A stretch of 64,000 bases of DNA from an uncultured Candidatus Binatia bacterium (GTDB lineage Bacteria; Desulfobacterota; Binatia; UBA9968; JAJDTQ01), in contig OZ253480.1 in assembly GCA_965261895.1 (NCBI GenBank), positions 3,947,665 to 4,011,664 of the forward strand. The letters run 5' to 3'. The position numbers were made by a program, and so were the translations under genes. Within the stretch, counting starts at the first letter, position 1, and each line of letters opens with the position of its first letter. The notes below the pieces were generated by a model that ran no database searches, had not been told where the DNA came from, and saw only the letters and a list, made by a program, of their open reading frames with translations. Of this stretch, positions 15,797 through 50,708 are shown piece by piece.

Positions 15797-15800
15797 AGCA

Positions 15801-15840: not shown

Positions 15841-15861
15841 GTTGTGGAACGGGTTCCTCTT

Positions 15862-16916: not shown

Positions 16917-17626
16917 TCCGCGTCGCGGACCTCCCGGTCCGTGAAGTCGTCGAGCCGGCGGCGGTCAGGTTGGTCACAGCCGGCTACCTGGACAAGCCGG
17001 CAATGGCGCTGCTCGCGGATGACCCGTCTGAATTCGCAATTCTGGAAGAGATCGAAGGGCTCACATCGGCCCGGGCGCCTTCATCGCCCACGGTCCCGTC
17101 CGGTATCCAACCGGGGGAATTGCTGACGGAAGCGGACGGGTACGGCTGGGCCTCCGTGAACGCCGCGTTCTGCCACACGCGCCCCACGGGCAACCGGTTC
17201 AACGGCCCGGAACGCGGAGCCTGGTATGCGTCCTATGGGAACAGGGTGACCGACACGGCGAAGGCCGAGGTCGCGTGGCATCTCACGCGGGAGCTTCGCG
17301 CCACCGGAATCTACGAGAACATCACGACATACAGGGAACTCCTGGCCGGCTTCATGACCCGCTTTCATGATCTCGGCGAGAGGACGGATGACGTGGTCTA
17401 CAGCGGAGATCCTGAGGTGGCCCATCCCGCCGGACAGGCGCTGGCCCGGGACATCCTGGCAGGCGGCGGAAACGGGGTGCTTTACCCGTCCGCGCGGCAT
17501 GAAGGCGGGAGGTGTCTGGCGGCGTTACGGCCCAATCTTGTGCAGAACATCCGCGAGGGTGAGATGTGGGTGTTCAGATGGGCGGGGTCGGCGGAGGTGG
17601 AGATCTCTAGAGGAGCGGCATCGTGA
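16913..17626 (+). CDS. RES-domain toxin, second diverged copy
   Basis: 237 aa from MIRVADLPVRE, near-identical in motifs to 2771-3484. Confidence 0.75.
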   Translation: MIRVADLPVREVVEPAAVRLVTAGYLDKPAMALLADDPSEFAILEEIEGLTSARAPSSPTVPSGIQPGELLTEADGYGWASVNAAFCHTRPTGNRFNGPERGAWYASYGNRVTDTAKAEVAWHLTRELRATGIYENITTYRELLAGFMTRFHDLGERTDDVVYSGDPEVAHPAGQALARDILAGGGNGVLYPSARHEGGRCLAALRPNLVQNIREGEMWVFRWAGSAEVEISRGAAS

Positions 17627-17759: not shown

Positions 17760-19271
17760 TTGGCGATGGCTGGCATTCTGATCAGTTGGATCGGTCAAAC
17801 TGACCTTCGGGCACCGGGGGAAGGGCCGCTCGTAGGGAAGGGTCCGATAGCCCAGGCGCTCGACACAAACTCCTATGACGCTGCCGTGCTGATTAGCGAT
17901 TACTCGAAAAGAGAGGTGACGCCGTTCCTACACTGGCTCCGACCGCAGATCGGAGCGCAAGTATCTGTCCACTACAAGCCGTTGTCCGGTCCCACAAACT
18001 TTGGCGAGATATACGAAGCTGCGGCTCAGGTTGTGACAGAGTCGCTCGCGCGACACGGCAGGGATTCTGAGCTGACCTTTCACCTGAGCCCAGGGACCCC
18101 AGCCATGGCGGCGGTCTGGATTGTTCTCGCCAAGACGCGGTTCCCCGCTGATCTGATCGAGTCTTCGCCCAAGCACGGTGTACGGACGGCCTCAGTACCC
18201 TTCGATATATCGGCAGAGTTTGTTCCCGACCTCCTCCGAGGTCCGGATGAACGCCTCGCGAAGCTCACCGCCGGGCTTCCTCCCGAGGCCCCGGAGTTCG
18301 CCGATATCATTCACCGTAGCCGCGTCATGGCTCGCGTAATCGCCAAGGCGCGTCGCGTTGCAGCCCGGTCAGTGTCTATACTTATAGAGGGTGAGACGGG
18401 TACCGGAAAGGAATTGCTGGCCCGGGCCATCCACCGTGCTAGCCTTCGGCGGGATAAGCCCTTCAAGGCCGTGAACTGCGGCGCAATACCGGCTGAACTC
18501 GCAGAATCCGAGCTCTTTGGCCATGAGAAAGGTGCCTTTACGGGTGCGGACAAAAAGAGGGTTGGCCACTTTGAGGCCGCGAGTGGCGGGACGCTCTTCC
18601 TTGACGAGGTCGGCGAGCTTTCGCTTGCCGTACAAGTAAAGCTGCTTCGTATTCTCCAGGAGGGGGAGGTGCTGCGTGTCGGTTCGACGACGCCGATCAA
18701 GGTGGACGTTCGAATCATCGCGGCAACAAACCGGGCCCTCGCCGATGAAGTCGCCGCAGGTCGCTTCAGGGAGGATCTATTCTATCGCCTTGCGGTGGCG
18801 GGTCTGAAACTGCCCCCCCTGAGAGAGAGAAGAGGCGACCTGAACCTTCTCCTGGATCAGTTGCTCGCCCAAGTCAACGAGGAACGCGCACAGCAGCCGG
18901 GCTATGAGCACAAGAAATTTTCTGTGAGCGCAAGAAATATTCTTCTCACTCATCCGTGGCCGGGTAACGTTCGAGAGTTGCTGAATACGCTTCATCGGGC
19001 GACGCTCTGGACGCCAGGACCGACAATCCAGGGTGAAGATGTGCGGGAGGCATTGCTGCCGGCGATAGACCGAAAGGCCTCGGGCATCCTCGACCGTCCG
19101 CTCGGCGATGGTCTCAACCTCCTGGATTTATTGGCTTCGGTGGCGCGGCACTATCTTGTGCGCGCCCTTGACGAGGCCCAGGGTAACAAGACACAGGCGG
19201 CCCGCTTGGTAGGGCTTTCGAGCTATCAGACGTTCACGAACTGGTTGGGTAAGTACGACGTGAAGCCGTGA
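17760..19271 (+). CDS. Sigma54-dependent transcriptional activator (bEBP) with a non-receiver, RtcR/CARF-like N-terminal sensor domain
   Basis: AAA+ sigma54-interaction domain with Walker A GETGTGKELLARAIH, the GAFTGA loop (FGHEKGAFTGADKK), Walker B LFLDEVGEL, and a C-terminal Fis-type HTH. The ~170-aa N-terminal domain lacks receiver Asp residues and recalls the RtcR CARF-like domain (..HLSPGTPAMAAVWIVLAKTRFPADLIESSP..). Confidence 0.75.
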   Translation: MAMAGILISWIGQTDLRAPGEGPLVGKGPIAQALDTNSYDAAVLISDYSKREVTPFLHWLRPQIGAQVSVHYKPLSGPTNFGEIYEAAAQVVTESLARHGRDSELTFHLSPGTPAMAAVWIVLAKTRFPADLIESSPKHGVRTASVPFDISAEFVPDLLRGPDERLAKLTAGLPPEAPEFADIIHRSRVMARVIAKARRVAARSVSILIEGETGTGKELLARAIHRASLRRDKPFKAVNCGAIPAELAESELFGHEKGAFTGADKKRVGHFEAASGGTLFLDEVGELSLAVQVKLLRILQEGEVLRVGSTTPIKVDVRIIAATNRALADEVAAGRFREDLFYRLAVAGLKLPPLRERRGDLNLLLDQLLAQVNEERAQQPGYEHKKFSVSARNILLTHPWPGNVRELLNTLHRATLWTPGPTIQGEDVREALLPAIDRKASGILDRPLGDGLNLLDLLASVARHYLVRALDEAQGNKTQAARLVGLSSYQTFTNWLGKYDVKP

Positions 19272-19287
19272 TGGCACGGACCTTGCC
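19272..19287 (+). promoter_or_regulatory. Sigma54 (RpoN) -24/-12 promoter TGGCAC-GGACC-TTGC immediately after the bEBP stop and ~50 bp upstream of the hsdR-like start
   Basis: Exact match to the TGGCAC-N5-TTGC consensus at 19272-19287: TGGCAC 19272-19277, 5-nt spacer, TTGC 19283-19286. Confidence 0.6.
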
Positions 19288-19334
19288 TGAGAGAGTACCT
19301 GTTGGAAGAAAGCCGGCCACGTACGGATGAGGCA

Positions 19335-21623
19335 ATGAGTCGAAACGAAGACAGAACATGCCGGGAACTGATCGAGCCCGCCCTGGAAGAGGCCGGGTGG
19401 GAGTGGGACCGGCAGGTCGTGATCGGCCCTGGCCGCGTCAACCTCACCGGCGAGTCTATGTACGACTCGTCTCAGCAGATCATCGCTGACTACGTGCTGC
19501 GTCTCTGGCGTATGCCGCTCGCCATTCTTGAGGCCAAGGCAGAGGTGGAATCAGCGACCGATGGGATGCAGCAGGGCTCCCGGTATGCTGACCGTCTTCG
19601 GCTTCGATTCTCGATCGCGTCGAACGGGTGCGACTACATCCTCACTGACAACGAAACCGGCGAATACGAGTCGTTCGACACCCCACCCACACCTGGGGAC
19701 ATTCTCTCCCGTCTCGGGCGCAACATCGTTTGGGAAGAGTGGCGTCCGGTTTTTGAGGCTCCGTGGCACGAGGACCAAATTACTCGCAAGAAGGTCCGCC
19801 CCTACCAGGAGATGGCCATCTTCGAGACCCTTTATCGCTTCAGTCAAGGCGAAAAGCGGGTACTCCTGCTAATGGCCACGGGTACGGGCAAAACCTTCAC
19901 GGTCTTTCAGCTCGCATGGAAGCTCATGCGCGGGGACGTTCTCCGGAACAACCGCCTCCTCTTCCTCACCGATCGCAACAGCCTCAAGGACCAAGCCTAT
20001 CGGGCCTTCGCCGGTTTCACCTTGGACGAGCGCGTTGTTATCGACAAGGATCTGGTCAGCCGAGGGGAGCATCTCGTCGGAAAGATCTTCTTCGCCAACT
20101 ACCAGAATCTTAACGAGGAACTGAGTGGGAAAAAGCTCTACGAGCACTTCGATCCGGATTTCTTCGACTTGGTCGTCGTGGACGAGTGTCACCGTTCCGG
20201 CTTCGGCGACTGGTTTGGAGTCCTCGATCGCTTCAAGTCAGCATATCAGTTAGGCTTGACCGCCACCCCGCGGGAAATCGATCAGAGCCGTCATACCCTT
20301 ACCGAACTGGAACTCCGGCGTGACACTTACGAGTACTTCGGGGAGCCGAAGTACGTTTACTCACTGAAGCAGGCCATAGAAGACGGCTACCTCGTCCCTT
20401 ATCTCCTAGAGGAGCGCATCTCGAACCTGGATGAGGATGGCTACACCGGACCGGACGGCAAGCAATACACAACAAAGAACTTCGAACGCGACATTCGTCT
20501 GCCCGAGCGGACTCGCGTTATCGCGGAGGACCTTTGGTCCATTCTCGGGAAGTACGGGCTCCGGGACGAGAAGACCATCGTCTTCTGCGTCGACGACACG
20601 CATGCAGCATTCGTGGCGGCGGAGTTGCGTCGCCTTTCAGGTGATGGCAACTACGCCGCGCGGATTACCAGATCCGAGCGTAACTCACATCAGCTTGAGC
20701 GCAACTTCGCAGAAGTCGGTCGCGCCAAGCCACGGGTGGCGGTCACGGTCGATCTGTTGACCACCGGCTTTGACGCACCCGACGTCAAAAACATCGTCTT
20801 CGCTCGGCCCGTTAAGAGCGCCATCCTCTATAAACAGATGAAAGGCAGGGGAACCCGCCTTTGCGACGACATCGACAAGCGCTACTTCACCATTTTCGAC
20901 TATGCCGGCGCGAATCTGCTGGAGGATGCTGAGTTCGATGGTCATCCTGCAAACCTGCAAACAAGCCGCAAGCCGCAACCGCAGAAAAAGGCGCCCGAGG
21001 CTGTCAAGGAGAAACCCGTCGGAGAGGGTGTTTCGGTCTACATTTCTTCCACGGAGCGTTACGTCTGCTTGGCCGATGGCCGAAAGATCCCTTTTGATGA
21101 GTACCGGGAGCAGTCACGCAACGCCATTCGGAGCATTGCGCCAACCAACGTCGACGAACTCTTGGATATTTGGATCGACAAGAACACACGCCGGGACTTA
21201 CGAGGTGAGCTTGCAGACCGGGATATTCATGTCGCGGCGTTCCGGCACTACCTTGAACTTGATGGATCGGATGATGTCGACATTCTTGCCAAGGTAGGGT
21301 TTGAACTGGTGCGGGTTCCATCGCGTCACGATCGCGTTGTTCGTTTCTGGGATGCCGAGGAGAACTGGTTGCTCGTTCAACTCGGCGAGCATGCCGTCCC
21401 CGATGACAATCGCTTCAAGACGTACTTCTGGCAGACCGGCCTCGACCACTATTCGCTCTACGGCATCGACGATCTTGAGAAGGGCGGCACCTACAGCGCA
21501 CCTCAGTTCGTGGAACAGTTCGGAAGCTTCAGCCGGTTGCTGAGTCTCTATGGAGGAGCCGACAAGCTGAGGACGGATTTGGAGGAAGTGAAGCAACACC
21601 TTTACGTGCCGATGTTGGCGTAG
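19335..21623 (+). CDS. Restriction enzyme R subunit (HsdR-like: HSDR_N nuclease + SF2 helicase)
   Basis: Start MSRNEDRTCRELIEPALEEAGWEW preceded by GAGG. Helicase motif I MATGTGKTFT and motif II DECHRS. A longer ORF beginning at 19302 is possible. Confidence 0.75.
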   Translation: MSRNEDRTCRELIEPALEEAGWEWDRQVVIGPGRVNLTGESMYDSSQQIIADYVLRLWRMPLAILEAKAEVESATDGMQQGSRYADRLRLRFSIASNGCDYILTDNETGEYESFDTPPTPGDILSRLGRNIVWEEWRPVFEAPWHEDQITRKKVRPYQEMAIFETLYRFSQGEKRVLLLMATGTGKTFTVFQLAWKLMRGDVLRNNRLLFLTDRNSLKDQAYRAFAGFTLDERVVIDKDLVSRGEHLVGKIFFANYQNLNEELSGKKLYEHFDPDFFDLVVVDECHRSGFGDWFGVLDRFKSAYQLGLTATPREIDQSRHTLTELELRRDTYEYFGEPKYVYSLKQAIEDGYLVPYLLEERISNLDEDGYTGPDGKQYTTKNFERDIRLPERTRVIAEDLWSILGKYGLRDEKTIVFCVDDTHAAFVAAELRRLSGDGNYAARITRSERNSHQLERNFAEVGRAKPRVAVTVDLLTTGFDAPDVKNIVFARPVKSAILYKQMKGRGTRLCDDIDKRYFTIFDYAGANLLEDAEFDGHPANLQTSRKPQPQKKAPEAVKEKPVGEGVSVYISSTERYVCLADGRKIPFDEYREQSRNAIRSIAPTNVDELLDIWIDKNTRRDLRGELADRDIHVAAFRHYLELDGSDDVDILAKVGFELVRVPSRHDRVVRFWDAEENWLLVQLGEHAVPDDNRFKTYFWQTGLDHYSLYGIDDLEKGGTYSAPQFVEQFGSFSRLLSLYGGADKLRTDLEEVKQHLYVPMLA

Positions 21624-21633
21624 GAGAACACCC

Positions 21634-23163
21634 ATGGCGCAAAGTGAGGCAAGGAACGAAGGCAAGCAGTTGTCCAACGGCACGACTGAGCACCGCCGCC
21701 AGGAGGTACAACAGGCCATCAAGAGTGCCTGTGACCAACTCCGAGACGACGGTGTGGAACCGCGTAACTACGTGGAGCAGCTCGCTTGGTTGTTCTTCCT
21801 CAAGGCATTTGACGAAATGGAGAGCCGCCGCGAAGAAGAGGCAGCCTTTGACGGCTCGTCGTACCGGCGAAGACTCGACGGCGAGTATAGTTGGTCGAGT
21901 TGGTCATCGATGTCCAACCGACCCGACCAGATGCTGGAATTTGTTGACGGGAAGCTCTGGTCACACCTCAAGAGCTTCGGAGAAACCGAGCATACCCGGC
22001 AATTCGCAAACGACCCGGTGGCCGAGCGATTCCGCCGCATCTTCTCGACGGTTCGCAACCATTCCCGTCGCGGCGCGAGCTTCGCGCGGGTCACTCAACA
22101 AGCCAATCGTCTCCAATTTGGTGACGAGACGGACGTTATAGTCCTTTCGGAACTCTATGAGGGGCTTCTGAAGGATGTAGCTGCCGACTCTGCCGGCTAT
22201 GCTGGCGAATTCTACACGCAGCGTCACGTCATCCGAGCCATGGTGGATGTGGTCCATCCCAAAATCGGAGACCGCATCTACGACCCGTGCTTCGGAACGG
22301 CTGGTTTTCTTGTCGAGTCGGCGGAGTACATCCGGAAGACGGCGGGCACCCTTAGTGGCTCGAATCTCGACCGCCTCCAGGAAAAGACCTTCTACGGGAT
22401 TGAACAAAAGCCGTTGACCTATCTCTTGGGCACGATGAATATGCTGCTGCATCGTATCGAGGGTGCGAACCTCGAACTCGGGAACACGCTAGAGCTGCAT
22501 GCGACCAACGTCTCGGAGAAAGACCGCTACGATGTTATCCTCTCGAATCCACCCTACGGCGGAAAGATGGCCCGCGAGCTTCAGACCAATTTCACAATCC
22601 AATCGGGCTCCACCGAGATACTCTTCCTGCAGCACATCATGACGCACTTGGCCAAGGGTGGCCGTGCCGCAGCGATCATCCCCGAGGGAGTCCTGTTTCG
22701 TGGCGGTCCCGACGCCAGGGTCCGTGAACGACTCCTCCGCGAATTCGACGTTCACACGATCCTCTCGCTGCCGGCAGGATGTTTCCTGCCGTACACGGGC
22801 GTGAAAACGAATGTGCTCTTCTTCACCCGCCGCAAGGATGACCGAGGCACTGGGGACGTTTGGTACTATGAGCTCACCAACGACGGGTTTGACCTTAAGT
22901 CGACGCGGCGGCCGATCCAGGGAAACCAAATTCCAGACTTCCTCACTAAGTGGGAGAAGCGAGCGAAAGGAGAGAACTCCTGGTCGGTCTCCGCGAAGGA
23001 GATCGCCGAGCAGAACTGGGACCTATCTGCCCGTAATCCTCAACAAGGAGGAAATATCGGACACAAGCCCGCGCTGGAGTTGGTTCAGTCCATCAAGGCG
23101 AAGGAAGAGAGAGTGGTCGAGCTTCTTGACGAACTGCAGGAGTTGCTGGAGGGTACCCGATGA
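21634..23163 (+). CDS. N6-adenine DNA methyltransferase subunit (HsdM-like)
   Basis: 509 aa with the SAM motif DPCFGTAGFL and the catalytic motif LSNPPYGG. Confidence 0.8.
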   Translation: MAQSEARNEGKQLSNGTTEHRRQEVQQAIKSACDQLRDDGVEPRNYVEQLAWLFFLKAFDEMESRREEEAAFDGSSYRRRLDGEYSWSSWSSMSNRPDQMLEFVDGKLWSHLKSFGETEHTRQFANDPVAERFRRIFSTVRNHSRRGASFARVTQQANRLQFGDETDVIVLSELYEGLLKDVAADSAGYAGEFYTQRHVIRAMVDVVHPKIGDRIYDPCFGTAGFLVESAEYIRKTAGTLSGSNLDRLQEKTFYGIEQKPLTYLLGTMNMLLHRIEGANLELGNTLELHATNVSEKDRYDVILSNPPYGGKMARELQTNFTIQSGSTEILFLQHIMTHLAKGGRAAAIIPEGVLFRGGPDARVRERLLREFDVHTILSLPAGCFLPYTGVKTNVLFFTRRKDDRGTGDVWYYELTNDGFDLKSTRRPIQGNQIPDFLTKWEKRAKGENSWSVSAKEIAEQNWDLSARNPQQGGNIGHKPALELVQSIKAKEERVVELLDELQELLEGTR

Positions 23164-24371
23164 GTTGGCCCGTGGCCCGCTTGGGGGATGTAGCCCAAGT
23201 GAATCCAAGACGTCACAGCGGTCTACGGTCGCTAGCTGGAAATGTGGAGGTGACGTTTGTTCCGATGGCTGCTGTGGACGAGGAAACCGGCACGATCTCT
23301 TGTCGAGAGGTGAAGCCACTTGGCGACGTTCGGAGGGGGTTGACCGCCTTTGCAGAAGGCGATGTGATTTTCGCCAAAATTACACCTTGCATGCAAAACG
23401 GGAAGTCGGCCATTGCTCATGGGCTTGTCAATGGCCTTGGCTTCGGCTCCACGGAGTTTCATGTACTCCGCCCGGGTCCAGATGTTCTTCCGGAGTGGCT
23501 GTGGTACGTCGTTCGACAACGCTCCTTCCGCGAGGAGGCCCGACGACACTTCCGCGGCTCTGCTGGTCAGCAGCGCGTCCCAGCGAGCTTTATCGAGCAA
23601 CACATGATTCCCCTGCCTTCCATTGGGTTGCAGAGACGAATCGTTGGGCAGGTTCGGTGGGCATTGGTACGAGTGAGTGAGATCCAAGATCTCCGTCGGA
23701 AGTCGCTGGCAGAGGCAACTGCACTAGAGGAAGCTGTTTTCTCGGATTTTATTGTGGATTTCATGAAGAACGCCTACGTCTCTATCGTTTCCCTTGGCGG
23801 CATCCTGGTCCGTGCACAGTATGGGTCATCCTCGAAGGCCAATACTGATGGAGAGGGTATACCTATTCTGCGGATGGGAAACATCCAGAATGGACACTTG
23901 GATGTGAGCGACCTCAAGCACATCAGTCTTTCCGCGAAGGAACTGACCAAGTACCGACTCAGCGAAGGAGACATACTTTTCAATCGGACCAACTCACTCG
24001 AGCTAGTCGGAAAGTCAGCAACCTTCACCGCATTGAAGGGAGACTGGGTGTTCGCGTCGTACCTGATCCGCCTTGATGTCGACCGTCGCAAGGCCCTCCC
24101 GGAGTACGTGACGGCGGTCATCAACAATCGGATAGGGCGAGACTACGTCTATCGCACAGCGCGGCGTGCCATTGGAATGGTGAACATCAACGCCAAGCAG
24201 ATTCAACGGCTGGAATTGCCGCTTCCCCCGTTGGCGGATCAGGAGTGGCTGGTCGGGCAAATGCGACGGGCTAAGACCGCAAGTGACAACATCCGAAGGG
24301 ATCTTGGCATGGAGGCTATAGAGGCCCTTCCTGATGCTATTCTCCACAAGGCCTTTGCGGGGGAGCTCTAA
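23160..24371 (+). CDS. Specificity subunit (HsdS-like), two TRDs
   Basis: 403 aa with ATGA overlap to hsdM. Conserved S-subunit repeats are present (LPLPSIGLQRRIV; LPLPPLADQEWLVGQM). Confidence 0.75.
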   Translation: MSWPVARLGDVAQVNPRRHSGLRSLAGNVEVTFVPMAAVDEETGTISCREVKPLGDVRRGLTAFAEGDVIFAKITPCMQNGKSAIAHGLVNGLGFGSTEFHVLRPGPDVLPEWLWYVVRQRSFREEARRHFRGSAGQQRVPASFIEQHMIPLPSIGLQRRIVGQVRWALVRVSEIQDLRRKSLAEATALEEAVFSDFIVDFMKNAYVSIVSLGGILVRAQYGSSSKANTDGEGIPILRMGNIQNGHLDVSDLKHISLSAKELTKYRLSEGDILFNRTNSLELVGKSATFTALKGDWVFASYLIRLDVDRRKALPEYVTAVINNRIGRDYVYRTARRAIGMVNINAKQIQRLELPLPPLADQEWLVGQMRRAKTASDNIRRDLGMEAIEALPDAILHKAFAGEL

Positions 24372-24403
24372 ACGGTGCGGCTTGCAATAGAAGTCGTCTA
24401 CAC

Positions 24404-27400
24404 ATGAGCCAGCTTGAACTTACGTCTCAAGTGTCCGAGCTATGGGACCGTCTCAGTGAGATGCGCGGCCAAGGGATTCGCAACCGCCCGTTCGAGTCTG
24501 TCATCGCTCCCCTTGCGGCCCTACTCTTGCTTTGTTGGGCTGAGCACCTGGACACCGAACAGGAAGCCGAGGCTGCCTTCGACGGTCGCGACCACCTGTC
24601 TGCTCTGCCTCGGGATCAGCACTGGTCCGCGTGGTGCGAGCTTCGCGGTGAGAGGCTTGTTGGCGCCCTTCAGAGAGGGGTTTTCCCCGCCCTGCGTCAT
24701 GCATCCAGTGGCACCCTCGGCCAGTCCTTGCAGCGGCTTGCGACCGTCTTTGAGGGCCTCACCCGCGAACCTCCCGAGGTGGTCGAGATGCTCGTGCAAT
24801 GGGGCCAGTTATTCGATCTAGAGACTGCCTGTGGCAAGCAGGCAGCGGCAGACGCCCTGGCGGCTCTTTTGGACCAGGCTACCGAGAAGTCCGCGAAATT
24901 CGGAGGGGAGTTTACAACGCCCCGATCTGTGGTCCAGATGATGGTTGACCTTCTCGCTCCCAATCCAGGTGAACGCATCTACGATCCATGTTTCGGTACC
25001 GGAGGTTTGCTCGCCACCGCGGCAAAGAGACTCCGTGAGAAGGCGTTGAAGATGCCCCCGAAGGTATGGACAGATGTCCGGGAGCGAAGCGTGTTCGGGG
25101 TAGAACTCAACCCGTTCGCCTACAGCATCGGGCTTGCACGAGTGGTTTTGGAAGGTATAGAGCAACCCGGACTCGAACTTGGGGACGTTTTGGAACGCCC
25201 TTTGGTCAAAGACCGGTACTCCGAGGGATTCGATTGCATTTTGGCCGTACCTCCTTGGGGCCGCCGCGTGCGCCAGAAGGTGGCAGCCCAGTTTCAAGTA
25301 TCGTCAACTTACGTTGAGACGCTCTTTCTCCAACACGTGATGGCTTCTCTTCGGCCGGGTGGCCGCGCCGTCATTGCCCTTCCGGAAGGTGTCCTCTTCC
25401 GGGCCGGCGCCGACCGGATGGTTCGCAAGGAGTTGCTCTCGGACTTCTGCGTCGAGGGGGTAGTGTCGCTGCCGGCTGGGGCTTTCCATCCGTACACAGG
25501 GATCAAGACGAGTTTGGTCCTCTTCCGACGTGAACAAGTCAAGGATGCTGTTCGGTTCATGCAGGTTGAGGAGTGGCCCTCTGTCCGACCGGGAGATGGG
25601 CTCAGCCGTGAGAAGGCGATTTCAGTGGCGCGCAGCATCGCTGAGGAATTCAAGAACGGCACACCAAACGGTAGCCTCTGGGAAAGCCCGATCAAGGAGC
25701 TTGCGACCAGGGACTGGGAGTTGGTCGCCAAACGGACAGGTGAGGAAACCCTATCGCGCTCGCTGCAGGTTCTGAAGGAGGCGGATGCCGAGGTCCCGGT
25801 ATGGCGGCTCAACGAGGTGGCGGAGATATTCCCCGGTGTTTCGTACGGGAAGTCGGTGACCACACAGTGCGCGGACGACCCAGCGGTGTTCGCCGGGCTC
25901 GTCCGTGTTGCAGATGTGAAAGGCACCGGTCCACAAGACCCCTCCCTCTTCCTGATCGCAGAGGGTAGCGAACGAGTGCAGTCGAAGCACTGGTTACGCG
26001 GGGGAGACATCCTCCTCACTGTCTCCGGAACCATCGGAAAGTTAGGGGTTGTGTCCGAGTCGGCGGGTACGGTCGGCTCGGTGGCCGCCAAGAGTATGGC
26101 TGTAATACGTCCCAGGAAACAGGTCTCTCCACAGTTTTTGGCGAGCCTCCTAGCCTCCCCTGTATACCAGGAGTGGATCCGCGGTCATGCGCACGGGGCG
26201 ACCATTCAGCATCTCTCCGTTCGAACGCTAGCGCATCTTCGCATTCCGGTGCCCGAAGTTCCGATCCAAGAACGCGTCGTCCAACAGGTGGGCGTCGAGC
26301 GAGACGGGCCCCTCGCTGTCCTCGCGCGGATCCTGACAGGTGAAAGCGAGGATCCAGTTGTCAATTGGCTCGAAACCTCTTCCGATGTGCGCAAGCTGCG
26401 GCAATCGGGTCACACAGTCGATCCTATTGTGGTTCTGGAGCGAATCGCCCATTCGGTTGGGAACCTACGAGATCAGGTGGCGCAAGCTCAGGTCCACGGT
26501 GTGCCCGACCTTGCTTACTGGTTGTTGGAGTTCGCAGAGGCGGTGAACCCGCTAAAGGGTTTGAAGCACGTGCCTTGGGGTGCCGGGCGCATGGCGATAC
26601 TGGACAGTGCACAACTTCGCCTAGGACGGTGGTTGTCGATTCTCGAAAAGTCATCGCTGCCCGTGCTTGACGCTGCGAGGGATCTGACGGGAGGGATTTC
26701 CCGGATCGTCCGGGCCGAATTGGATTCGATCATGGAAGATGTGAAGCTGGTGCCCGGCGTTGAACCGAGCGCGGTAGTAGCGGGGACGGAAAACGAGGTC
26801 CAAGTACGTGTGACGAATCAGTCGCCTCTTGCGCTCCGCAATGTCTCGGTCTCAACTGTACCCGACATCGGTGGGCGCCGCTTCGATTACCTCGCTGAGG
26901 GTGAGACGCTCAGTTTCACGGCGAAGATTCCCGCACTCGGAAAGACAAGCCCTTTTCCTTTCGAGCTTCGATGGCGAGCGGACCGCCTTGACGGACGGCC
27001 AGTATCCGGTGAATTGCCGCTGGCCGTAGATGTTCGCTCGACGCGCGAAGCCGTCCACCTCTCGGAGCTCGGGGCCAGCCCGTACATCGTCGGAAACCCG
27101 ATCGATCGAGAGGAGATGTTCTTTGGCCGTCGAGATCTCATCGACAAGATTAGGCGACAGCTCTCCACAAGTCACAGTGCCAACGTCATTCTTCTGGAAG
27201 GCAATCGTAGAACGGGCAAGACCTCCATTCTCAAGCGCCTACAGGCTCCCCACGTGCTCCCAGGTTGGATTGTCGTAAACTGCTCTTTCCAAGGTGGCGA
27301 GGGCCACGAAAGCAAGGCTGGTTTGCCCACCAACGAGGTTTTCAGACTCATGGCGCGCGACATCGGCCAGGCGGTGGATGACGCCGGGCACCAAGTATCG

Positions 27401-28330
27401 CTTCCGGACATGGTTCTCCCAGATTTGAAGAGGCGGTTCAAGGTAGCGTTTGTGAAGGCTCTAGCGACGGCATTCTCCGGTCCGCAACCCTTCCAGGTGT
27501 TCGAGCTTTACATACAGGCTGTCTTGGAGGCTGCCAGTCCGCGACGCCTCCTGCTCATGCTTGACGAATTTGACAAGCTCCAGGAGGGCATCGACACCGG
27601 CGTCACGAGCCCGCAAGTTCCGGAAAACCTCCGCTACCTGCTTCACAACTACCAAGGGCTGTCAGCCATACTCACTGGCTCTCGCCGTCTCAAGCGACTT
27701 CGGGAGGAGTACTGGTCGGCGCTCTTCGGGTTTGGGCACAGAGTCTCCGTGAGTGAACTCCCGTTGGGGGATGCGCGACTCCTTGTGAAGCAGCCGGTCG
27801 AGGGGCGGCTTACGTACGTGCCCGAGGCGACAGACCGCGTGGTCGAACTGTGTTCGCGACAACCCTTCCTGATCCAGTCATTGTGCAACCAGATCTTCGA
27901 GCGAACTGCCCTCTCGGACGAGCGAACGGTGACGGTGGGCGCGGTAGACGCCGCTGCCACGGAGATGGTTCAGGACAACGAGCACTTCCGTACGCTTTGG
28001 GGTTACGCCGGGACCGAACGCAAACGTTTCGTTCTGTCGTTGTGTCAGCGGCTAAAGGAGGGACCAGATCCCATCACACTAAGTTTGTTGGAGGCGAAGC
28101 TTGAGGAGTGTGGCATTGCCCTCCCTTATGGCGAACGTTTGGGAGATGATCTGGAGTATCTCCGTGAACTCGAACTTATCGAACTTGAGGAGACTACGCG
28201 GGGCCCGGCATATACGCTCGCTGTTCCGTTGATGGCCGACTGGATACGGCGGAACATCGACTTCGAGGATCAGCGCCAGCAGGTCGTTCGGGAAATTGAA
28301 GAAAAGGTGACCACGGAGGAAGAACAGTGA
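24404..28330 (+). CDS. Multidomain fusion protein: HsdM-like MTase (non-canonical motif IV AVPPW) + single S-type TRD + ORC/Arch-type AAA+ ATPase with a winged-helix C-terminus
   Basis: 1308 aa. Residues 1-390 have the MTase motif I IYDPCFGTGGL, but the motif IV position reads ILAVPPWGRR (gta = Val) where N/D/S is expected. Residues ~400-640 are TRD-like (LRGGDILLTVSGTIGKLG...IQHLSVRTLAHLRIPVPEVPIQERV). Residues ~870-1308 carry FFGRRDLIDKIRRQL, Walker A GNRRTGKTS and Walker B LLLMLDEFD. Confidence 0.65.
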   Translation: MSQLELTSQVSELWDRLSEMRGQGIRNRPFESVIAPLAALLLLCWAEHLDTEQEAEAAFDGRDHLSALPRDQHWSAWCELRGERLVGALQRGVFPALRHASSGTLGQSLQRLATVFEGLTREPPEVVEMLVQWGQLFDLETACGKQAAADALAALLDQATEKSAKFGGEFTTPRSVVQMMVDLLAPNPGERIYDPCFGTGGLLATAAKRLREKALKMPPKVWTDVRERSVFGVELNPFAYSIGLARVVLEGIEQPGLELGDVLERPLVKDRYSEGFDCILAVPPWGRRVRQKVAAQFQVSSTYVETLFLQHVMASLRPGGRAVIALPEGVLFRAGADRMVRKELLSDFCVEGVVSLPAGAFHPYTGIKTSLVLFRREQVKDAVRFMQVEEWPSVRPGDGLSREKAISVARSIAEEFKNGTPNGSLWESPIKELATRDWELVAKRTGEETLSRSLQVLKEADAEVPVWRLNEVAEIFPGVSYGKSVTTQCADDPAVFAGLVRVADVKGTGPQDPSLFLIAEGSERVQSKHWLRGGDILLTVSGTIGKLGVVSESAGTVGSVAAKSMAVIRPRKQVSPQFLASLLASPVYQEWIRGHAHGATIQHLSVRTLAHLRIPVPEVPIQERVVQQVGVERDGPLAVLARILTGESEDPVVNWLETSSDVRKLRQSGHTVDPIVVLERIAHSVGNLRDQVAQAQVHGVPDLAYWLLEFAEAVNPLKGLKHVPWGAGRMAILDSAQLRLGRWLSILEKSSLPVLDAARDLTGGISRIVRAELDSIMEDVKLVPGVEPSAVVAGTENEVQVRVTNQSPLALRNVSVSTVPDIGGRRFDYLAEGETLSFTAKIPALGKTSPFPFELRWRADRLDGRPVSGELPLAVDVRSTREAVHLSELGASPYIVGNPIDREEMFFGRRDLIDKIRRQLSTSHSANVILLEGNRRTGKTSILKRLQAPHVLPGWIVVNCSFQGGEGHESKAGLPTNEVFRLMARDIGQAVDDAGHQVSLPDMVLPDLKRRFKVAFVKALATAFSGPQPFQVFELYIQAVLEAASPRRLLLMLDEFDKLQEGIDTGVTSPQVPENLRYLLHNYQGLSAILTGSRRLKRLREEYWSALFGFGHRVSVSELPLGDARLLVKQPVEGRLTYVPEATDRVVELCSRQPFLIQSLCNQIFERTALSDERTVTVGAVDAAATEMVQDNEHFRTLWGYAGTERKRFVLSLCQRLKEGPDPITLSLLEAKLEECGIALPYGERLGDDLEYLRELELIELEETTRGPAYTLAVPLMADWIRRNIDFEDQRQQVVREIEEKVTTEEEQ

Positions 28331-29916
28331 GCGAAAGTCCCTACCAAGTCCTTGGCCTAGGAGTCCCGGCAATGCTCGGGCGCGAGCGGCTTCTCGAACG
28401 GCTACTTCGCCACCTGACCAAGCCAACGCCAGACCACATGTGCGTCGTAGGCCCTCCGCTGTTCGGGAAATCGGTCTTCCTCAATCACGCTGCTGCCTAC
28501 TTCAAGGAGGCAGGTGATCACTACGTCACCTCCCTCTACTGGGACCTCCGGCATAGCACTCCAGGAACCGACGACCAGTTCCGCCGGCGTTTCGCGGAGC
28601 GAGTCAGGGATGCCCTCCAACCGGTAGAACCTGGCCTTGCCAAGGACCTTGACCCGGAGGACGAAGCGCTTGCCGATCTTCTTCCTCTCGTCTTCGATGA
28701 GTTGGATCGAAAGGGAATCCGCTTCCTCGCCGTGCTCGACGGGTTCGATCACGTTCTTGAAGGGAGTGGCATTACGAGAAATCTGTGGGATTACATGAGG
28801 ACGCTTTGCGAGAAAACCAGCCTTCGACTCGCAACTGGAAGCCGGAGCAGACTCCGTGAGCTTTGTAAGAGCGAGGACTCCCGGACATCAGATTTCTGGG
28901 AGATCTTCTACCACACCCCGTTGGAGGTCGGGTGTTTTGAAGAGCACGACTGGAACGGTTTCCTCGATCCCTTCAAATCGCGGGGGATCACGTTCGACGG
29001 ATCCGCTCTCAAAGAGATTGCCAACTGGACTGGCGGTGTCCCGGTTCTGGCAGCGGCTTTGGCCGAGCGGCTACTGGACGGGGTTCTCGACGGCGCATCG
29101 CTCTCCAAATCCCACGTGGACAGGATCGCACGGGACGTGGCTGAGGAACGACGAGATCTACTCGCGGCGCTTTGGGATCATTGTCAAATCGACCTGCAGT
29201 CTGATCTGGTCGCCCTCGCCCACAGCGATCTCCGATCGTCCGAGGTGTCCGATGAACGGAAGCGCCGGCTCGAACTGCGGGGGTTCGCCCGCTCGTCCGG
29301 AACTCGGCTCCGAGGTTCGTGTCGTTTGATGGTCCAATATGCCCAGCAGCGAGGGGGCGAGGTGGAGAATCTGCGGCGGCTATTCGGCGACGCGGAGCTT
29401 TTCGAGAGCAATATTCGAAGTCTCCTTGAGATCCGTTTGGCGCAGATACCCATCGTCGATTCGGAGCTGGTGGGATATGTCCAATACGCGATCCGGGATC
29501 TGCAGCCGAACCCCACCAACACCGTGGTTTGGGCCCGAAGCATCGCTGAAAGAGGTCTGGATCTGATCTGGAAGGCCGAGCTTCCGGTGAGCAGGTCTCT
29601 GCCGGACGCCTGGAAATTTGTCGGAGTGAAGTTTGACGAACGGGGCCAGTTTCCTACGAGACGTGGTCCGCAGTGTGGAATCCTCCGTCTCATCACGGGT
29701 ACGGAAGACCACGACCCGGTCGCGAAGTTCGTAACTAGGCCGACGTACTTGCTTGTAAACCACATTCACTCTGTCGGTGACTTCGGACAGCACAAGGGAG
29801 ACACCGCCGTGTCAGTGTCGTTCGCCGCTGCGTTTTGTCTGTCAGCAATTGGCCTCTGCGAAAGCCTTGCCAGGGAACTGACTACGTCAGCGAGCACGCT
29901 GATCCCGGATGGCTGA
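28327..29916 (+). CDS. Second ORC/Arch-type AAA+ ATPase with an uncharacterised C-terminal domain
   Basis: The GTG start overlaps the upstream TGA. N-terminal LGRERLLERLLRHL, Walker A GPPLFGKS, Walker B FLAVLDGFD. The ~200-aa C-terminal region was not recognised. Confidence 0.55.
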   Translation: MSESPYQVLGLGVPAMLGRERLLERLLRHLTKPTPDHMCVVGPPLFGKSVFLNHAAAYFKEAGDHYVTSLYWDLRHSTPGTDDQFRRRFAERVRDALQPVEPGLAKDLDPEDEALADLLPLVFDELDRKGIRFLAVLDGFDHVLEGSGITRNLWDYMRTLCEKTSLRLATGSRSRLRELCKSEDSRTSDFWEIFYHTPLEVGCFEEHDWNGFLDPFKSRGITFDGSALKEIANWTGGVPVLAAALAERLLDGVLDGASLSKSHVDRIARDVAEERRDLLAALWDHCQIDLQSDLVALAHSDLRSSEVSDERKRRLELRGFARSSGTRLRGSCRLMVQYAQQRGGEVENLRRLFGDAELFESNIRSLLEIRLAQIPIVDSELVGYVQYAIRDLQPNPTNTVVWARSIAERGLDLIWKAELPVSRSLPDAWKFVGVKFDERGQFPTRRGPQCGILRLITGTEDHDPVAKFVTRPTYLLVNHIHSVGDFGQHKGDTAVSVSFAAAFCLSAIGLCESLARELTTSASTLIPDG

Positions 29917-30008
29917 TAGCCGCACCGACGATGACGCGCACCATTGTCGAGAGTAACTGATGAGCCTCTACACTAGGTACATCTTTAAGCGGTGCCCAAA
30001 CGGGGCAC

Positions 30009-30647
30009 ATGCTGTATTGGGAGGAAGGTAACTCCGCCGAGGATGACACTTTTTGCTGGAAATGCGGGGAGTCCTATCTGCTGAACTGCCCCTCGTGTAA
30101 CCACCAACTCGGAAATGCGTTTGATACCATGAAGTCGGCGTTTGATGGGAAGCCGCGGAAGGTGCCTAACAAACCGGCATTCTGTGGCAAGTGCGGCAAG
30201 CCCTATCCCTGGACGTTAGCTGAGCATCAGAGAATTGAGGACGCTGGATTTTGGTCGCTGGTGCATCCCATGGTCATCAAGCTGGCAAGGCCTCGGTTTG
30301 AGACAGGTCACTATGCGGATGCGGTGGAAGCCGCGTTCAAGGGACTGAACAGCAACGTAAAAGAACTTTTTCTGACCGCGAAAGGGCGAGAACTCGACGG
30401 CCCGGACCTTATGAGGAAGGCGTTACGGACCGATGACGCCGTGCTCGTCTTAGGTGACCTTACAACAGAGTCTGGCCGCAACATTCAAGATGGTTACTCT
30501 CATATTTTTGCGGGTGCCATGCAGGCAATCCGCAATCCCAGTGCCCATGCAAACACGGAGATTGGTTCGAATCGAGCATGCCACCAATTGATGCTTGCAA
30601 GCCTTCTTTTCCGTCAAATTGATGAAAGAAGGAAAGGCGATAGGTAG
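30009..30647 (+). CDS. Double zinc-ribbon + TIGR02391 (Hypoth_Ymh) HEPN-family Abi-like protein
   Basis: N-terminal Cys pairs CWKCG...CPSCNH...CGKCGKPYPW. The C-terminal Ymh domain carries the HEPN Rx4-6H motif (IRNPSAHANTEI). A GTGCCCaaacGGGCAC hairpin sits just upstream of the ATG. Confidence 0.55.
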   Translation: MLYWEEGNSAEDDTFCWKCGESYLLNCPSCNHQLGNAFDTMKSAFDGKPRKVPNKPAFCGKCGKPYPWTLAEHQRIEDAGFWSLVHPMVIKLARPRFETGHYADAVEAAFKGLNSNVKELFLTAKGRELDGPDLMRKALRTDDAVLVLGDLTTESGRNIQDGYSHIFAGAMQAIRNPSAHANTEIGSNRACHQLMLASLLFRQIDERRKGDR

Positions 30648-50696: not shown

Positions 50697-50708
50697 GCGG
50701 CCGGGGTC

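Follow-up and report, generated by a model that had tools for sequence, protein, structure and literature searches.

A seven-gene locus joining an RtcR-like regulator, a type I restriction-modification system and a conserved pair of ATPases in a Candidatus Binatia bacterium

Layout of the locus

Do the restriction-modification (RM), ATPase and HEPN genes clustered in the genome of an uncultured Candidatus Binatia bacterium constitute a single defence system under the control of a sigma54 enhancer-binding protein (bEBP), and which of them belong to its core? The window (the whole 64-kb stretch of DNA that was analysed) is a defence island, which also contains a second type I RM system, RES toxins and an MNT pair. 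The seven open reading frames described in an initial annotation match ours exactly in position and domain content, and are listed here together with their putative regulatory elements:

17760..19271, + strand: CARF-AAA+-HTH bEBP of the RtcR_PspF2 family (PADLOC, Pfam, NCBIfam)
18913-18923 and 18933-18943, no strand: two AGAA-N3-TTCT dyads, candidate enhancer (UAS), inside the bEBP coding region
19272..19287, + strand: putative sigma54 (RpoN) -24/-12 promoter TGGCACggaccTTGCc, starting at the first base past the bEBP stop codon
19302..21623, + strand: HsdR, EcoAI/type IB restriction subunit (NCBIfam, Pfam)
21634..23163, + strand: HsdM, active-looking N6-adenine methyltransferase (Pfam, PADLOC, motifs)
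23160..24371, + strand: HsdS with two target recognition domains (TRDs) (PADLOC Specificity_I matches)
24404..28330, + strand: 1308-aa fusion of HsdM-like, TRD and ATPase regions (Pfam, motifs)
28327..29916, + strand: 529-aa partner ATPase, Arch/ORC/STAND P-loop, winged helix and C-terminal four-helix bundle
30009..30647, + strand: 212-aa zinc-ribbon (DUF2321) and Ymh-family HEPN protein (Pfam, PADLOC)

The bEBP probably starts at the ATG at 17766, and HsdR most likely at an in-frame ATG at 19335 (with a GAGG Shine-Dalgarno sequence), giving a protein of 762 aa, exactly as long as the orthologues from the related loci L002 and L083. Genes are tightly coupled from HsdR through the second ATPase, as originally described, with a 10-nt gap between HsdR and HsdM, a 4-nt overlap of the HsdM and HsdS reading frames, a 32-nt gap before the fusion, and a 4-nt overlap (GTGA) of the fusion stop with the start of the second ATPase; the Ymh gene follows after 92 nt. 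Our best explanation as a whole, to which we attach an even chance, includes the proposal that the locus is a sigma54-dependent defence operon, gated by the CARF-domain bEBP.

The regulator, its promoter and candidate enhancer sites

The suggestion that the N-terminus of the bEBP resembles the CARF domain of RtcR is borne out by profile searches. The PADLOC model PDLC01995 RtcR_PspF2 (CARF-AAA-HTH) matches the full length of the protein (residues 6-501, E=3e-199), the N-terminus weakly matches the CARF domain of Can1 (PDB 6sce), and CARF profiles are also matched (CARF4, 4e-12; CARF1, 4e-5). Pfam identifies Sigma54_activat, AAA_lid_14 and HTH_8 domains but no receiver domain, and a GAFTGA motif is present. 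Scores against the RtcR models themselves lie below their cut-offs in both Pfam (19.3 bits, cut-off 23.1) and NCBIfam (348.7 bits, cut-off 650). By these matches the bEBP is assigned to an already classified family, RtcR_PspF2 of PADLOC.

A link between such regulators and restriction has already been predicted. RtcR-like CARF-NtrC-HTH proteins "are often associated with R-M systems", with sigma54 activation predicted (Makarova 2014), and Supplementary File 4 of the same study includes a bEBP-HsdR-HsdM-HsdS-fusion locus in Desulfococcus oleovorans, while RtcR-headed superoperons with type I RM, and an RNA-cleavage feedback loop, have also been proposed (Bell 2024). Consequently, the claim that no RM system had been described under sigma54/bEBP control fails for in-silico descriptions; an experimental test of RM under bEBP control was not found in the literature.

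The perfect sigma54 promoter reported directly 3' of the bEBP gene is present, and its placement at the end of the bEBP gene is conserved in related loci across phyla. TGGCACggaccTTGCc is the sole perfect TGGCAC-N5-TTGC in the window, and the strict motif recurs in 21 of 42 related loci, 16 times with an offset of 0 from the stop codon of the bEBP (the expectation for strict matches, by our own estimate, is about 0.08). If loose matches are included, 32 of the 42 carry a -24/-12 element no more than 20 nt from that stop codon. In this comparative sense the predicted promoter is real. A constitutive hsdMS promoter was not detected, sigma70-like matches being no commoner than chance, and this raises a self-methylation problem for a fully inducible type I RM system.

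The two dyads inside the bEBP gene are 20 bp apart, and some 335-355 nt separate them from the -24 element downstream. Only four AGAA-N3-TTCT dyads occur in the window (0.36 expected), and the intragenic pair is conserved across phyla: 38 dyads occur over 1.5 Mb of related loci, and one 70-nt stretch of 35 bEBP genes accounts for at least 23 of them, where about 0.06 would be expected. Moreover, the Arg codon inside this stretch is AGA in 28 of the 35 genes, against an AGA usage of 5.7% across those genes. This enrichment, together with the codon anomaly, argues that the dyads are kept in place by selection on the DNA itself; their repeat period of 20 nt is no multiple of 3. We regard them as a candidate enhancer for the bEBP. 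Their distance from the promoter exceeds that of most known enhancer sites, and counts against this part of the best explanation.

The ATPase pair and its neighbours

The unit conserved among 81 related loci, drawn from more than 10 phyla, consists of a bEBP, a sigma54 promoter abutting the bEBP stop, an optional EcoAI-type HsdRMS, the fusion and the second ATPase. Architecture classes were counted on the 65 loci whose 10-kb upstream flank is complete: bEBP, RM and pair (21 loci), bEBP and pair (19), RM and pair (11), and the pair alone (14). The fusion itself is conserved in at least 328 proteins and 79 genome loci, and the partner follows it in 80 of 81 loci. The partner shows weak AAA_16/ATPase_2 matches in Pfam and has no model in PADLOC v2 or NCBIfam. 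It is distantly paralogous to the ATPase of the fusion, and the identities of the two co-vary (rho=0.83). A fixed architecture of about 525 aa is common to approximately 254 clusters at 50% identity. On this comparative evidence, the two form an obligate, translationally coupled paralogous pair. Their ATPase fold is of the STAND/ORC type, matching PAB2304, CED-4, plant NLRs, MalT and Avs3, and no nuclease domain was found in either core protein, where only a HEPN-like four-helix bundle was seen.

Within the fusion, Pfam places N6_Mtase at residues 150-389, a Methylase_S TRD at 526-626 and AAA_16 at 906-1100, while PADLOC MTase_I spans residues 6-447, the HsdM-like N-terminal and catalytic-fold regions both being complete. 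The Walker A (GNRRTGKTS) and Walker B (LLMLDEFD) motifs hardly vary. The HsdM-like module had been called probably dead, with which its motifs agree: motif I (YDPCFGTGG) is retained, but motif IV reads VPPW, compared with NPPY in the HsdM of the operon, and begins with V or A throughout the clade of the window. Because about 30% of the fusion family carry a canonical motif IV (NPPW or DPPW), some clades may have an active methyltransferase module. In 32 of 32 loci the fused TRD is an orthologue; it co-varies with the ATPase (rho=0.75), neither resembles nor tracks the neighbouring HsdS TRDs, and never shuffles, which makes its earlier description as a dedicated DNA-recognition module doubtful. 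As far as sequence can tell, one ATPase of the pair thus carries a dead copy of the RM system's own DNA-recognition module.

HsdR matches restrict_EcoAI of NCBIfam (E=1e-150, residues 15-768) and the Pfam domains ResIII, Helicase_C, EcoEI_R_C and HSDR_N, and HsdM matches N6_Mtase (1e-65) and HsdM_N in Pfam and MTase_I in PADLOC (1e-139), with motif I FGTAG and motif IV NPPY. Among 32 loci, TRD1 of HsdS is undetectable in 20, and TRD2 varies between no detectable match and 84% identity regardless of HsdM identity; in L083, an otherwise almost identical operon, HsdS shares only 28% identity but HsdR 98%. With catalytic motifs intact and HsdS TRDs shuffling, the set looks like a working RM system.

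It is conceivable, though unlikely, that the pair is a type I accessory, in which the fusion would dimerise into an M2S-like core and recruit HsdR, either for methylation-independent restriction gated by the ATPases or as an HsdR loader or regulator. The complete HsdM-like regions of the fusion would suit such a role, as would the orthologous EcoAI-type HsdRMS found directly upstream of the pair in the same operon in 32 of the 65 full-flank loci, the co-variation of HsdM and HsdR identities with the fusion (rho=0.6 and 0.49, respectively), and the Acinetobacter ursingii plasmid pRIVM0002, on which HsdR, fusion and partner ATPase follow one another with overlapping genes and without HsdM or HsdS. 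However, in 33 of the 65 loci the pair has no HsdR within 10 kb, so HsdR is not an obligatory effector, and, short of very tight gating, a methylation-blind HsdR complex whose TRD is invariant would turn on the host's own chromosome.

The 3' end of the operon was the basis of the original comparison with PrrC and RloC, under which the ATPases would monitor the RM enzyme and, depending on its state, turn on their dedicated effector, the Ymh HEPN RNase. The protein is a clear family member (Hypoth_Ymh, 100 bits, cut-off 25; DUF2321, 43.6 bits), carries an RNPSAH (Rx4H) motif and matches the defence protein PD-Lambda-3_B in PADLOC (6e-16). That Ymh proteins occur in RM operons is already published, as is the comparison with PrrC, proposed for Ymh-paraMORC fusions (Anantharaman 2013). 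Yet the gene follows the partner ATPase only in the window and its close relatives L083 and L084, and 81 other loci contain no Ymh or zinc-ribbon match on either strand, their corresponding slot holding unrelated defence genes (SAVED-HNH, SMODS, OLD-like ATPase or AAA-PDDEXK) or nothing. Consequently, a PrrC/RloC-like layout is no core feature. The Ymh-HEPN gene is lineage-specific 3' cargo outside the conserved core, at most an add-on, set apart by its 92-nt gap from the tightly coupled core genes. Given also that the ATPases are of the ORC/STAND type, unlike the ABC type of PrrC and RloC, we consider this split arrangement rather improbable.

Possible modes of action

Since neither core protein has a nuclease domain, exclusion without cleavage may be envisaged, whereby the HsdM-like/TRD region reads DNA and the ATPases polymerise on it, blocking phage replication or transcription. 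ORC, MuB and TnsC are ATPases that polymerise on DNA, and the combination of methyltransferase-like module and ORC-like ATPase is reminiscent of PglX and BrxC of BREX. We find this quite improbable: BREX and MADS models of PADLOC and NCBIfam score far below their cut-offs on the locus, PglZ and BrxL equivalents are absent, and no partner methyltransferase with the same TRD is present to mark host DNA, motif IV being dead in the window's clade and the TRD invariant.

Very improbable, in our estimation, is that the pair is a non-immune epigenetic or regulatory device, or a mobile-island maintenance factor, merely travelling with RM genes. An immune role is a reading of sequences, and the lack of models for the partner and the loci with the pair alone would fit this alternative. 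Against it, the pair lies consistently in defence islands with defence cargo in the same operon, and is patchily spread across phyla and also found on a plasmid, which is the usual pattern of defence genes; a STAND/NLR-like fold is likewise typical of immune sensors. The CARF regulator family, too, is otherwise linked to defence and RNA repair (Makarova 2014, Bell 2024).

The explanation we prefer, which may equally prove right or wrong, is a sensor/effector model in which an RtcR-like switch controls type I RM and the ORC/STAND ATPase pair. The CARF domain would hold the bEBP inactive until an infection or damage signal binds; bEBP on the intragenic dyads would then activate the sigma54 promoter, raising the amounts of HsdR and the downstream gene products. 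The fused HsdM-like/TRD module, having lost methyl transfer while keeping its SAM-binding motif and an invariant TRD, would act as a sensor rather than an enzyme. Its likeliest ligand would be an agent directed at the face with which type I methyltransferases bind DNA, for example a DNA-mimic anti-restriction protein, or alternatively DNA itself. Assembly of the ATPases upon ligand binding would activate an effector, namely the partner's conserved helical bundle, plus the Ymh RNase in this lineage, and the CARF sensor would in turn respond to RNA cleavage. Several observations count against this model: a module guarding RM sits uneasily with the absence of nearby RM from about half of the loci; the fusions with NPPW or DPPW speak against a sensor-only reading; and the basic residue conserved in nucleotide-binding CARFs is missing from most of the RtcR family (Makarova 2014).

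What is new here is the obligate paralogous fusion/partner pair, the non-shuffling fused TRD, and the dyads under apparent DNA-level selection; neither the ATPase pair, which is widespread and still unnamed, nor the conserved promoter/enhancer layout has been described before. The pair would resemble NLR and Avs proteins in that ligand binding is proposed to drive oligomerisation, in this case hetero-oligomerisation of the two ATPases.

The operon and its relatives

We recovered all seven open reading frames (ORFs) of the operon at the same coordinates as the initial annotation, and with matching domain content, in Pfam, PADLOC and NCBIfam profile searches. The elements on which the argument turns lie on one strand, in this order:

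17760-19271, enhancer-binding protein (bEBP) gene
19272-19287, sigma54 promoter element
19335, probable HsdR start, followed by HsdR and HsdM
23160-24371, HsdS
24404-28330, 1308-aa fusion of an HsdM-like module, a TRD and an ATPase (the fusion)
28327-29916, second ATPase, 529 aa (the partner)
30009-30647, Ymh gene (zinc ribbon and HEPN domain)

The RM genes constitute a type I system with the full domain set, namely an HsdR with nuclease, SF2 helicase and C-terminal domains, an HsdM with motif I and motif IV (NPPY), and an HsdS with two TRDs, visible as two Methylase_S stretches. HsdR belongs to the EcoAI/type IB family (restrict_EcoAI, E=1e-150, 503 bits, slightly under the cut-off of 550), and its likely start codon is an in-frame ATG (19335), which has a GAGG Shine-Dalgarno sequence and gives a protein of 762 aa as in orthologues. 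The fusion carries N6_Mtase (residues 150-389), a single Methylase_S TRD (526-626) and AAA_16 (906-1100), and its middle or linker region gave only sub-threshold hints of a beta-sandwich in Pfam (NPCBM_assoc, Qn_am_d_aIII). The partner shows weak AAA_16/ATPase_2 matches. The last, 212-aa protein combines a DUF2321 zinc ribbon with a HEPN domain of the Ymh family (PF09509; 100.2 bits against a cut-off of 25), in which RNPSAH fits the Rx4-6H motif.

Both ATPases possess the P-loop NTPase fold, Walker A/B motifs, helical lid and winged helix of STAND, ORC/Cdc6 and archaeal PF01637 ATPases. Profile-profile comparison aligned the partner with the ATPase of the fusion at 97.4% probability (E=9e-12, 274 columns), and the two share SPY-V, Walker A/B and TGSR...LRE motifs. 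The partner is thus a distant paralogue of the fusion's ATPase and, given this paralogy and the common motifs, we suggest that the two proteins form a hetero-oligomer. The C-terminal domain of the partner matched nothing in Pfam at E<=10, and a fold search with this helical bundle did not discriminate between HEPN and generic four-helix bundles. In an exhaustive search with the partner (E<=1e-30), the homologues fell into about 254 clusters at 50% identity, nearly all of 520-540 aa and aligning from end to end. In PADLOC v2 and NCBIfam release 20 the partner has no match and the fusion hits type I methyltransferase/specificity models only, and in Pfam both ATPases match just the generic AAA_16/AAA_22. 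The literature searched contained nothing relevant on a named system with an inactive methyltransferase and a STAND ATPase, or with N6_Mtase and AAA_16.

Homologues of the ATPase half of the fusion number at least 328 proteins, many of which unite N6_Mtase, Methylase_S and AAA_16, and which bear generic names only (e.g. 'type I restriction enzyme M protein', 'ATP-binding protein'). A scan of species-representative genomes by alignment of the fusion ATPase region yielded 79 loci, from Planctomycetota, Gemmatimonadota, Acidobacteriota, Latescibacterota, Spirochaetia, Cyanobacteria, Chloroflexota, Myxococcota and Nitrospirales, as well as beta-, gamma- and delta-proteobacteria, and the fusion/partner pair is spread over more than 10 phyla. 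Cultured carriers include Pseudomonas sp. KNUC1026, Variovorax paradoxus NBRC 15149, Cupriavidus lacunae, Shewanella, Marinomonas, Geomonas diazotrophica and Minicystis rosea, together with a plasmid of Acinetobacter ursingii; no homologue of the fusion ATPase was found in phage genomes.

When every protein of the window was searched against the related loci with tblastn, the 529-aa ATPase was found immediately 3' of the fusion in 80 of 81 non-redundant loci, and the one exception is truncated by the end of its contig. Of the 65 loci whose upstream flank reaches the full 10 kb, 21 combine a CARF-bEBP (a bEBP with a CARF domain), HsdRMS and the pair, 19 have the CARF-bEBP and the pair without RM, 11 have RM and the pair (in several of these the bEBP is cut off at the flank edge), and in 14 the pair stands alone. 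The Ymh protein, which the initial annotation had placed in the system, is not among the shared genes: neither a Ymh nor a zinc-ribbon homologue was detected by tblastn on either strand of the 81 other loci. The gene occurs in close relatives of the window only, L083 (second ATPase 80% identical) and L084 (96%), and in both is followed by the same DUF2867 gene as in the window. Elsewhere, the slot after the partner is empty or holds defence genes unrelated to it, namely SAVED-HNH, SMODS/CD-NTase, an OLD-like AAA_15 ATPase or AAA-PDDEXK. A conserved third gene in this slot was considered and rejected, the candidates being lineage-specific clusters only, with several 'ORFs' that are antisense artefacts typical of GC-rich DNA. 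Judged by gene content across loci, what is conserved is the bEBP with its promoter and the two ATPases, with HsdRMS a frequent insert and Ymh-HEPN a lineage-specific 3' cargo.

Two variants deserve mention. Four loci from gammaproteobacterial MAGs (L025-L027 and L029) carry HsdRMS and the pair with no CARF-bEBP in the 10-kb flank and only small ORFs upstream, and this clade may use a different regulator; HsdR is longer in these loci, reaching 896 aa in L025. On the Acinetobacter ursingii plasmid pRIVM0002 (NZ_MH220285.1, 194747-202512), which also bears aac(3)-IId, HsdR is followed by the fusion (annotated 'N-6 DNA methylase', motif IV HPPV) and then by the partner (annotated 'ATP-binding protein'), with a WYL-domain gene upstream and without HsdM, HsdS or bEBP. 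This arrangement may mean that HsdR and the fusion are functionally connected, as would be expected if the pair formed an accessory complex dependent on HsdR; however, half of the loci have no HsdR nearby, and we regard such dependence as unlikely.

Regulator, promoter and intragenic dyads

The bEBP (503 aa) consists of a sigma54-interaction AAA+ domain bearing the GAFTGA sigma54-contact motif, an AAA lid and a Fis-type HTH, preceded by an N-terminal domain in which the initial annotation saw a non-receiver sensor resembling the CARF domain of RtcR. Profile evidence favours that assignment: the protein matches PADLOC RtcR_PspF2--CARF_AAA_HTH (PDLC01995), a family defined by a CARF domain, a sigma54 AAA+ domain and an HTH, over residues 6-501 (E=3e-199), residues 58-127 match CARF4 (4e-12) and CARF1 (4e-5), and a profile search found no receiver domain in the bEBP. 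The isolated N-terminal domain reached 19.3 bits against Pfam RtcR, below the cut-off of 23.1, and its best match among PDB sequences was the CARF domain of Can1 (6sce), at a marginal E=0.13. The bEBP is not RtcR itself, since the NCBIfam equivalog NF038308 scores 348.7 bits (residues 67-491) against a cut-off of 650, and since its gene is followed by hsdRMS, the ATPase pair and the Ymh gene in place of rtcBA; no RtcA or RtcB family was present among the window ORFs scanned.

A sigma54 -24/-12 element, TGGCACggaccTTGCc, occupies 19272-19287, its first base directly following the bEBP stop codon. The perfect form TGGCAC-N5-TTGC occurs once in the 64 kb, at this position, with the -24 GG, the -12 GC and canonical spacing in place and kept in relatives, so that the promoter predicted by the initial annotation is well supported at the level of sequence. 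A strict TGG[CT]A[CT]-N5-T[TC]GC[ATC] adjoins the bEBP stop codon in 21 of 42 loci (at offset 0 in 16), against a chance expectation that we estimate at about 0.08 strict matches in the roughly 13,000 positions searched, and 32 of the 42 have an element no more than 20 nt from that codon once loose matches (at least 9 of 11 consensus positions, with GG and GC kept) are counted. Sites with one mismatch are as numerous in the window as chance predicts; one such motif, GGGCACTGGGATTGC, lies in the Ymh gene (30532-30546, minus strand). Scans of the operon for sigma70 promoters and terminators gave matches no commoner than in shuffled sequence.

Within the bEBP gene lies a 20-nt tandem repeat, each copy of which contains an AGAA-N3-TTCT dyad:

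18913-18923, first AGAA-N3-TTCT dyad
18933-18943, second AGAA-N3-TTCT dyad

As its period is not a multiple of three, this is not a protein repeat. The dyad-bearing stretch is conserved across phyla, and at least 23 of the 38 dyads in 1.5 Mb of locus DNA fall within this 70-nt stretch of 35 bEBP genes, where about 0.06 are expected. Moreover, the arginine codon inside the dyad is AGA in 28 of the 35 genes, compared with an AGA usage of 5.7% in those genes. The window as a whole has four such dyads against 0.36 expected. Cross-phylum conservation, concentration of the dyads and AGA codon bias together argue for selection on the DNA itself, and we consider the dyads, which precede the -24 element by about 335-355 nt, a candidate enhancer for the bEBP HTH.

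The fused module, its surroundings and a proposed mechanism

The methyltransferase module of the fusion is 30% identical to the operon HsdM and keeps motif I (YDPCFGTGG), but has VPPW where HsdM has NPPY, and so lacks the polar first residue of the motif IV consensus (D/N/S)PP(Y/F/W). The description 'probably dead' in the initial annotation accordingly agrees with the sequence. Of 76 loci, 19 begin motif IV with V, 25 with A, 9 with H, T, Q or C and 23 with N, D or S; the residue is V or A throughout the clade of the window, and motif I and the ATPase Walker motifs of the fusion are nearly invariant. Because the canonical N/D/S form persists mostly in a more distant proteobacterial clade, the module was probably active ancestrally and inactivated in the clade of the window.

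Recognition domains of the two proteins also differ in how they evolve. In 20 of 32 loci no TRD1 of HsdS can be detected, and the identity of TRD2 runs from below detection up to 84%, whatever the identity of HsdM, whereas the fused TRD is detectable in all 32 at 31-71% identity, following overall divergence (Spearman 0.75 for fused TRD versus fusion ATPase, 0.25 for HsdS versus HsdM). In the near-identical pair formed by L083 (927-5998) and the window (19302-24371), HsdR is 98% identical, bEBP 97%, HsdM 90% and the fused TRD 84%, but HsdS only 28% because its TRDs were swapped; this comparison points to a recent swap in the RM system that left the fused TRD in place. The fused TRD resembles neither of the neighbouring HsdS TRDs beyond a generic stretch of 64 residues. 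Overall, the RM system looks intact, diversifying and functional, and the fused methyltransferase/TRD module is predicted to be enzymatically defective and does not shuffle, unlike an RM part in its behaviour.

The operon closes a region of about 28 kb (~2000-30650) that looks like a defence island, with a G+C content (0.56-0.60) lower than that of its flanks (0.62-0.71). Other features of this region, its borders and the remainder of the window are:

44-1429, TRAP transporter DctM gene, border
2705-3484, RES-domain protein of toxin type, 259 aa
4076-4738, MNT nucleotidyltransferase
4857-5510, protein with a weak MtlR/HEPN-like match
5507-13018, second type I RM system, same strand as the operon
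5507-8281, its HsdR, with EcoEI_R_C
8282-9871, its HsdS
9765-11006, Schlafen/AlbA_2-domain gene, inserted between hsdS and hsdM of this system
11525-13018, its HsdM
13071-14231, ORF of 386 aa, between the upstream RM system and the following RES gene
15394-16335, ORF of 313 aa, in the same interval
16607-17626, RES-domain protein of toxin type, 339 aa
30650-32047, NmrA/DUF2867 gene, border, starting 2 nt after the Ymh stop
36036-44240, ORF of 2734 aa with Calx-beta, fibronectin type III, cadherin-like and SWM repeats
47434-52618, OEP / HlyD-PAS / MacB-FtsX export set, beside the large ORFs in a region of 65-71% G+C
54588-59642, ORF of 1684 aa, repeats as in the ORF of 2734 aa

The toxin-type genes (RES and MNT) flank the RM systems, and the MNT gene and its MtlR/HEPN-like neighbour suggest a HEPN/MNT pair. 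As the ORFs of 386 and 313 aa have no Pfam match, they may be uncharacterised defence genes. Neither tRNA genes nor Rfam matches are present in the window, and no integrase was noticed. Outside the island, the two very large ORFs probably encode secreted adhesins, with the adjacent export set as their exporter. For the pair, a role outside defence is in our view very improbable.

We propose the following chain of events. The CARF domain would restrain the bEBP as long as no signal of damage or infection is bound; on the model of RtcR, this signal would be a cyclic-phosphate RNA. Upon binding, the bEBP would switch on the sigma54 promoter and raise expression of HsdR and all downstream genes. 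The RM-derived surface of the fusion would act as a sensor: in our preferred version it baits anti-restriction factors directed at the DNA-binding face of methyltransferase/specificity proteins, and in the alternative the fusion reads DNA directly. ATP-dependent assembly of the fusion with its paralogue, in the manner of NLR/Avs proteins, could trigger an effector, which would be the helical bundle of the partner, joined in this lineage by the Ymh RNase, and RNA cleavage could reinforce induction through the CARF domain. Our confidence in the architectural and regulatory description of the locus is high, the sensor-effector chain is offered tentatively, and for the two combined we see an even chance. 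Bolder still, and improbable in our judgement, is the proposal that the pair constitutes a widespread unnamed anti-phage system, in which an NLR-like ATPase carries a catalytically dead type I methyltransferase/specificity surface as an integrated decoy. By catching anti-restriction proteins, or by reading DNA, this decoy would launch an abortive response, and the whole operon with its working type I enzyme would be switched on by the CARF sensor via sigma54 upon RNA damage.

Restriction systems are usually regarded as constitutive. The precise cis-architecture described here, common to loci from several phyla (CARF-bEBP, intragenic dyads and a sigma54 promoter abutting the stop codon) would place a type I restriction subunit under an infection- or damage-sensing switch, and the existence of cultured hosts makes infection-induced restriction directly testable. 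If the decoy and feedback reading were true, the locus would offer experimenters their first tractable example of restriction that is induced by infection and subject to feedback from RNA cleavage. A dead, non-shuffling, RM-derived recognition module on an NLR-like ATPase would parallel the integrated decoys of plant NLRs, and could also represent a novel means by which the cell protects restriction from anti-restriction proteins. Furthermore, the pair, with its breadth of clusters and phyla and no model for the partner, would be a defence module missing from PADLOC v2 and NCBIfam. Given cultured carriers and sharp predictions, the locus is well worth an experiment.

Comparison with known systems

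The closest published relatives are RtcR-like ('PspF-like') CARF-AAA-HTH proteins beside RM genes, which Makarova et al. 2014 (PMC4012209) predict to be sigma54-dependent activators sensing infection-derived ligands. The window bEBP shares their CARF domain, sigma54 AAA+ domain with GAFTGA and Fis-type HTH and, like theirs, its gene immediately precedes type I RM genes of the same orientation. In its Supplementary File 4, the study lists for Desulfococcus oleovorans Hxd3 a bEBP, HsdR, HsdM, HsdS and then a 1362-aa protein with pfam02384, pfam01420 and pfam13191, the same order as in the window; judged by its domains, this protein is the same fusion. Main-text passages of the paper discuss neither the fusion nor the fusion/partner pair, the stop-codon-abutting promoter and the intragenic dyads seen in the window, and no description of these last three, the pair being taken as a conserved module, was found in the literature searched. 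Bell et al. 2024 (PMC11090510) report RtcR homologues at the head of 'superoperons' that, like the window operon, continue with type I RM and defence genes in one orientation, and propose a feedback via HEPN-generated cyclic-phosphate RNA. Their CoCoNuT superoperons end in McrBC-like CnuB/CnuC and the CnuH helicase, whereas the window operon ends at the Ymh gene, and the conserved cargo of window-type loci is the fusion/ATPase pair. CoCoNuT membership was rejected, the Ymh gene being followed only by the NmrA/DUF2867 gene and unannotated ORFs.

Both the CARF-bEBP/RM link and the feedback idea are thus already in the literature as predictions, as is the link between Ymh and RM (Anantharaman et al. 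2013, PMC3710099). Since Makarova et al. and Bell et al. describe such loci, the statement in the initial annotation that no RM system had been described under sigma54/bEBP control does not hold for in-silico work; an experimental test of sigma54 control over any RM system was not found in the literature searched. The RNA-cleavage feedback loop that it thought conceivable is the same idea as that of Bell et al.

BREX (PglX and BrxC) and MADS resemble the window in joining an N6-adenine methyltransferase-like protein with a specificity domain to an ORC-like P-loop ATPase, as would suit exclusion without cleavage in the manner of BREX. They differ in that the window has no PglZ or BrxL and a defective motif IV. 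Against MAD2 the fusion reaches 84.5 of the 720 bits required, and against MAD5 38 of 400, reflecting the shared methyltransferase fold only, PglX does not match the fusion and gives 24 bits on the operon HsdM (cut-off 500), and models of PglZ, BrxL and BrxC had no matches. BREX/MADS membership was rejected on these scores and on gene content, and BREX-like exclusion seems to us highly improbable. Type ISP/IIG single-chain enzymes, like the fusion, have an HsdM-like module followed by one TRD on the same chain; the fusion differs in having no nuclease or helicase module, a lost catalytic residue and a STAND-type ATPase fused instead.

PrrC/RloC and Ymh-paraMORC fusions (PMC3710099) likewise place an NTPase and a HEPN RNase beside type I RM, and the logic of PrrC/RloC, a second, abortive defence when restriction is subverted, is a further likeness. 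The initial annotation had seen this parallel in the layout, which as a full reading would make the operon a split PrrC-like system with Ymh as its dedicated effector. The parallel fails in the ATPase type and in obligate pairing with HEPN: PrrC/RloC are single polypeptides with ABC-type ATPases, whereas those of the window are of ORC/STAND type on separate proteins, and none of the 81 other loci has the HEPN gene beside them. Membership of the PrrC/RloC type was rejected on this fold and on the separate, non-conserved HEPN gene. A dedicated HEPN arm is not the core of the system, the Ymh gene being lineage-specific, and the split PrrC-like reading, at best confined to this lineage, is in our view quite unlikely. 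With the STAND/NLR-like antiviral ATPases (Avs, bacterial NACHT) and archaeal PF01637 ATPases, the fusion shares the union of sensor and NTPase in one protein; it departs from them in that the system is an obligate pair of paralogues with no recognisable effector domain, and in that the putative sensor is an RM-derived methyltransferase/TRD module in place of TPR or other repeats.
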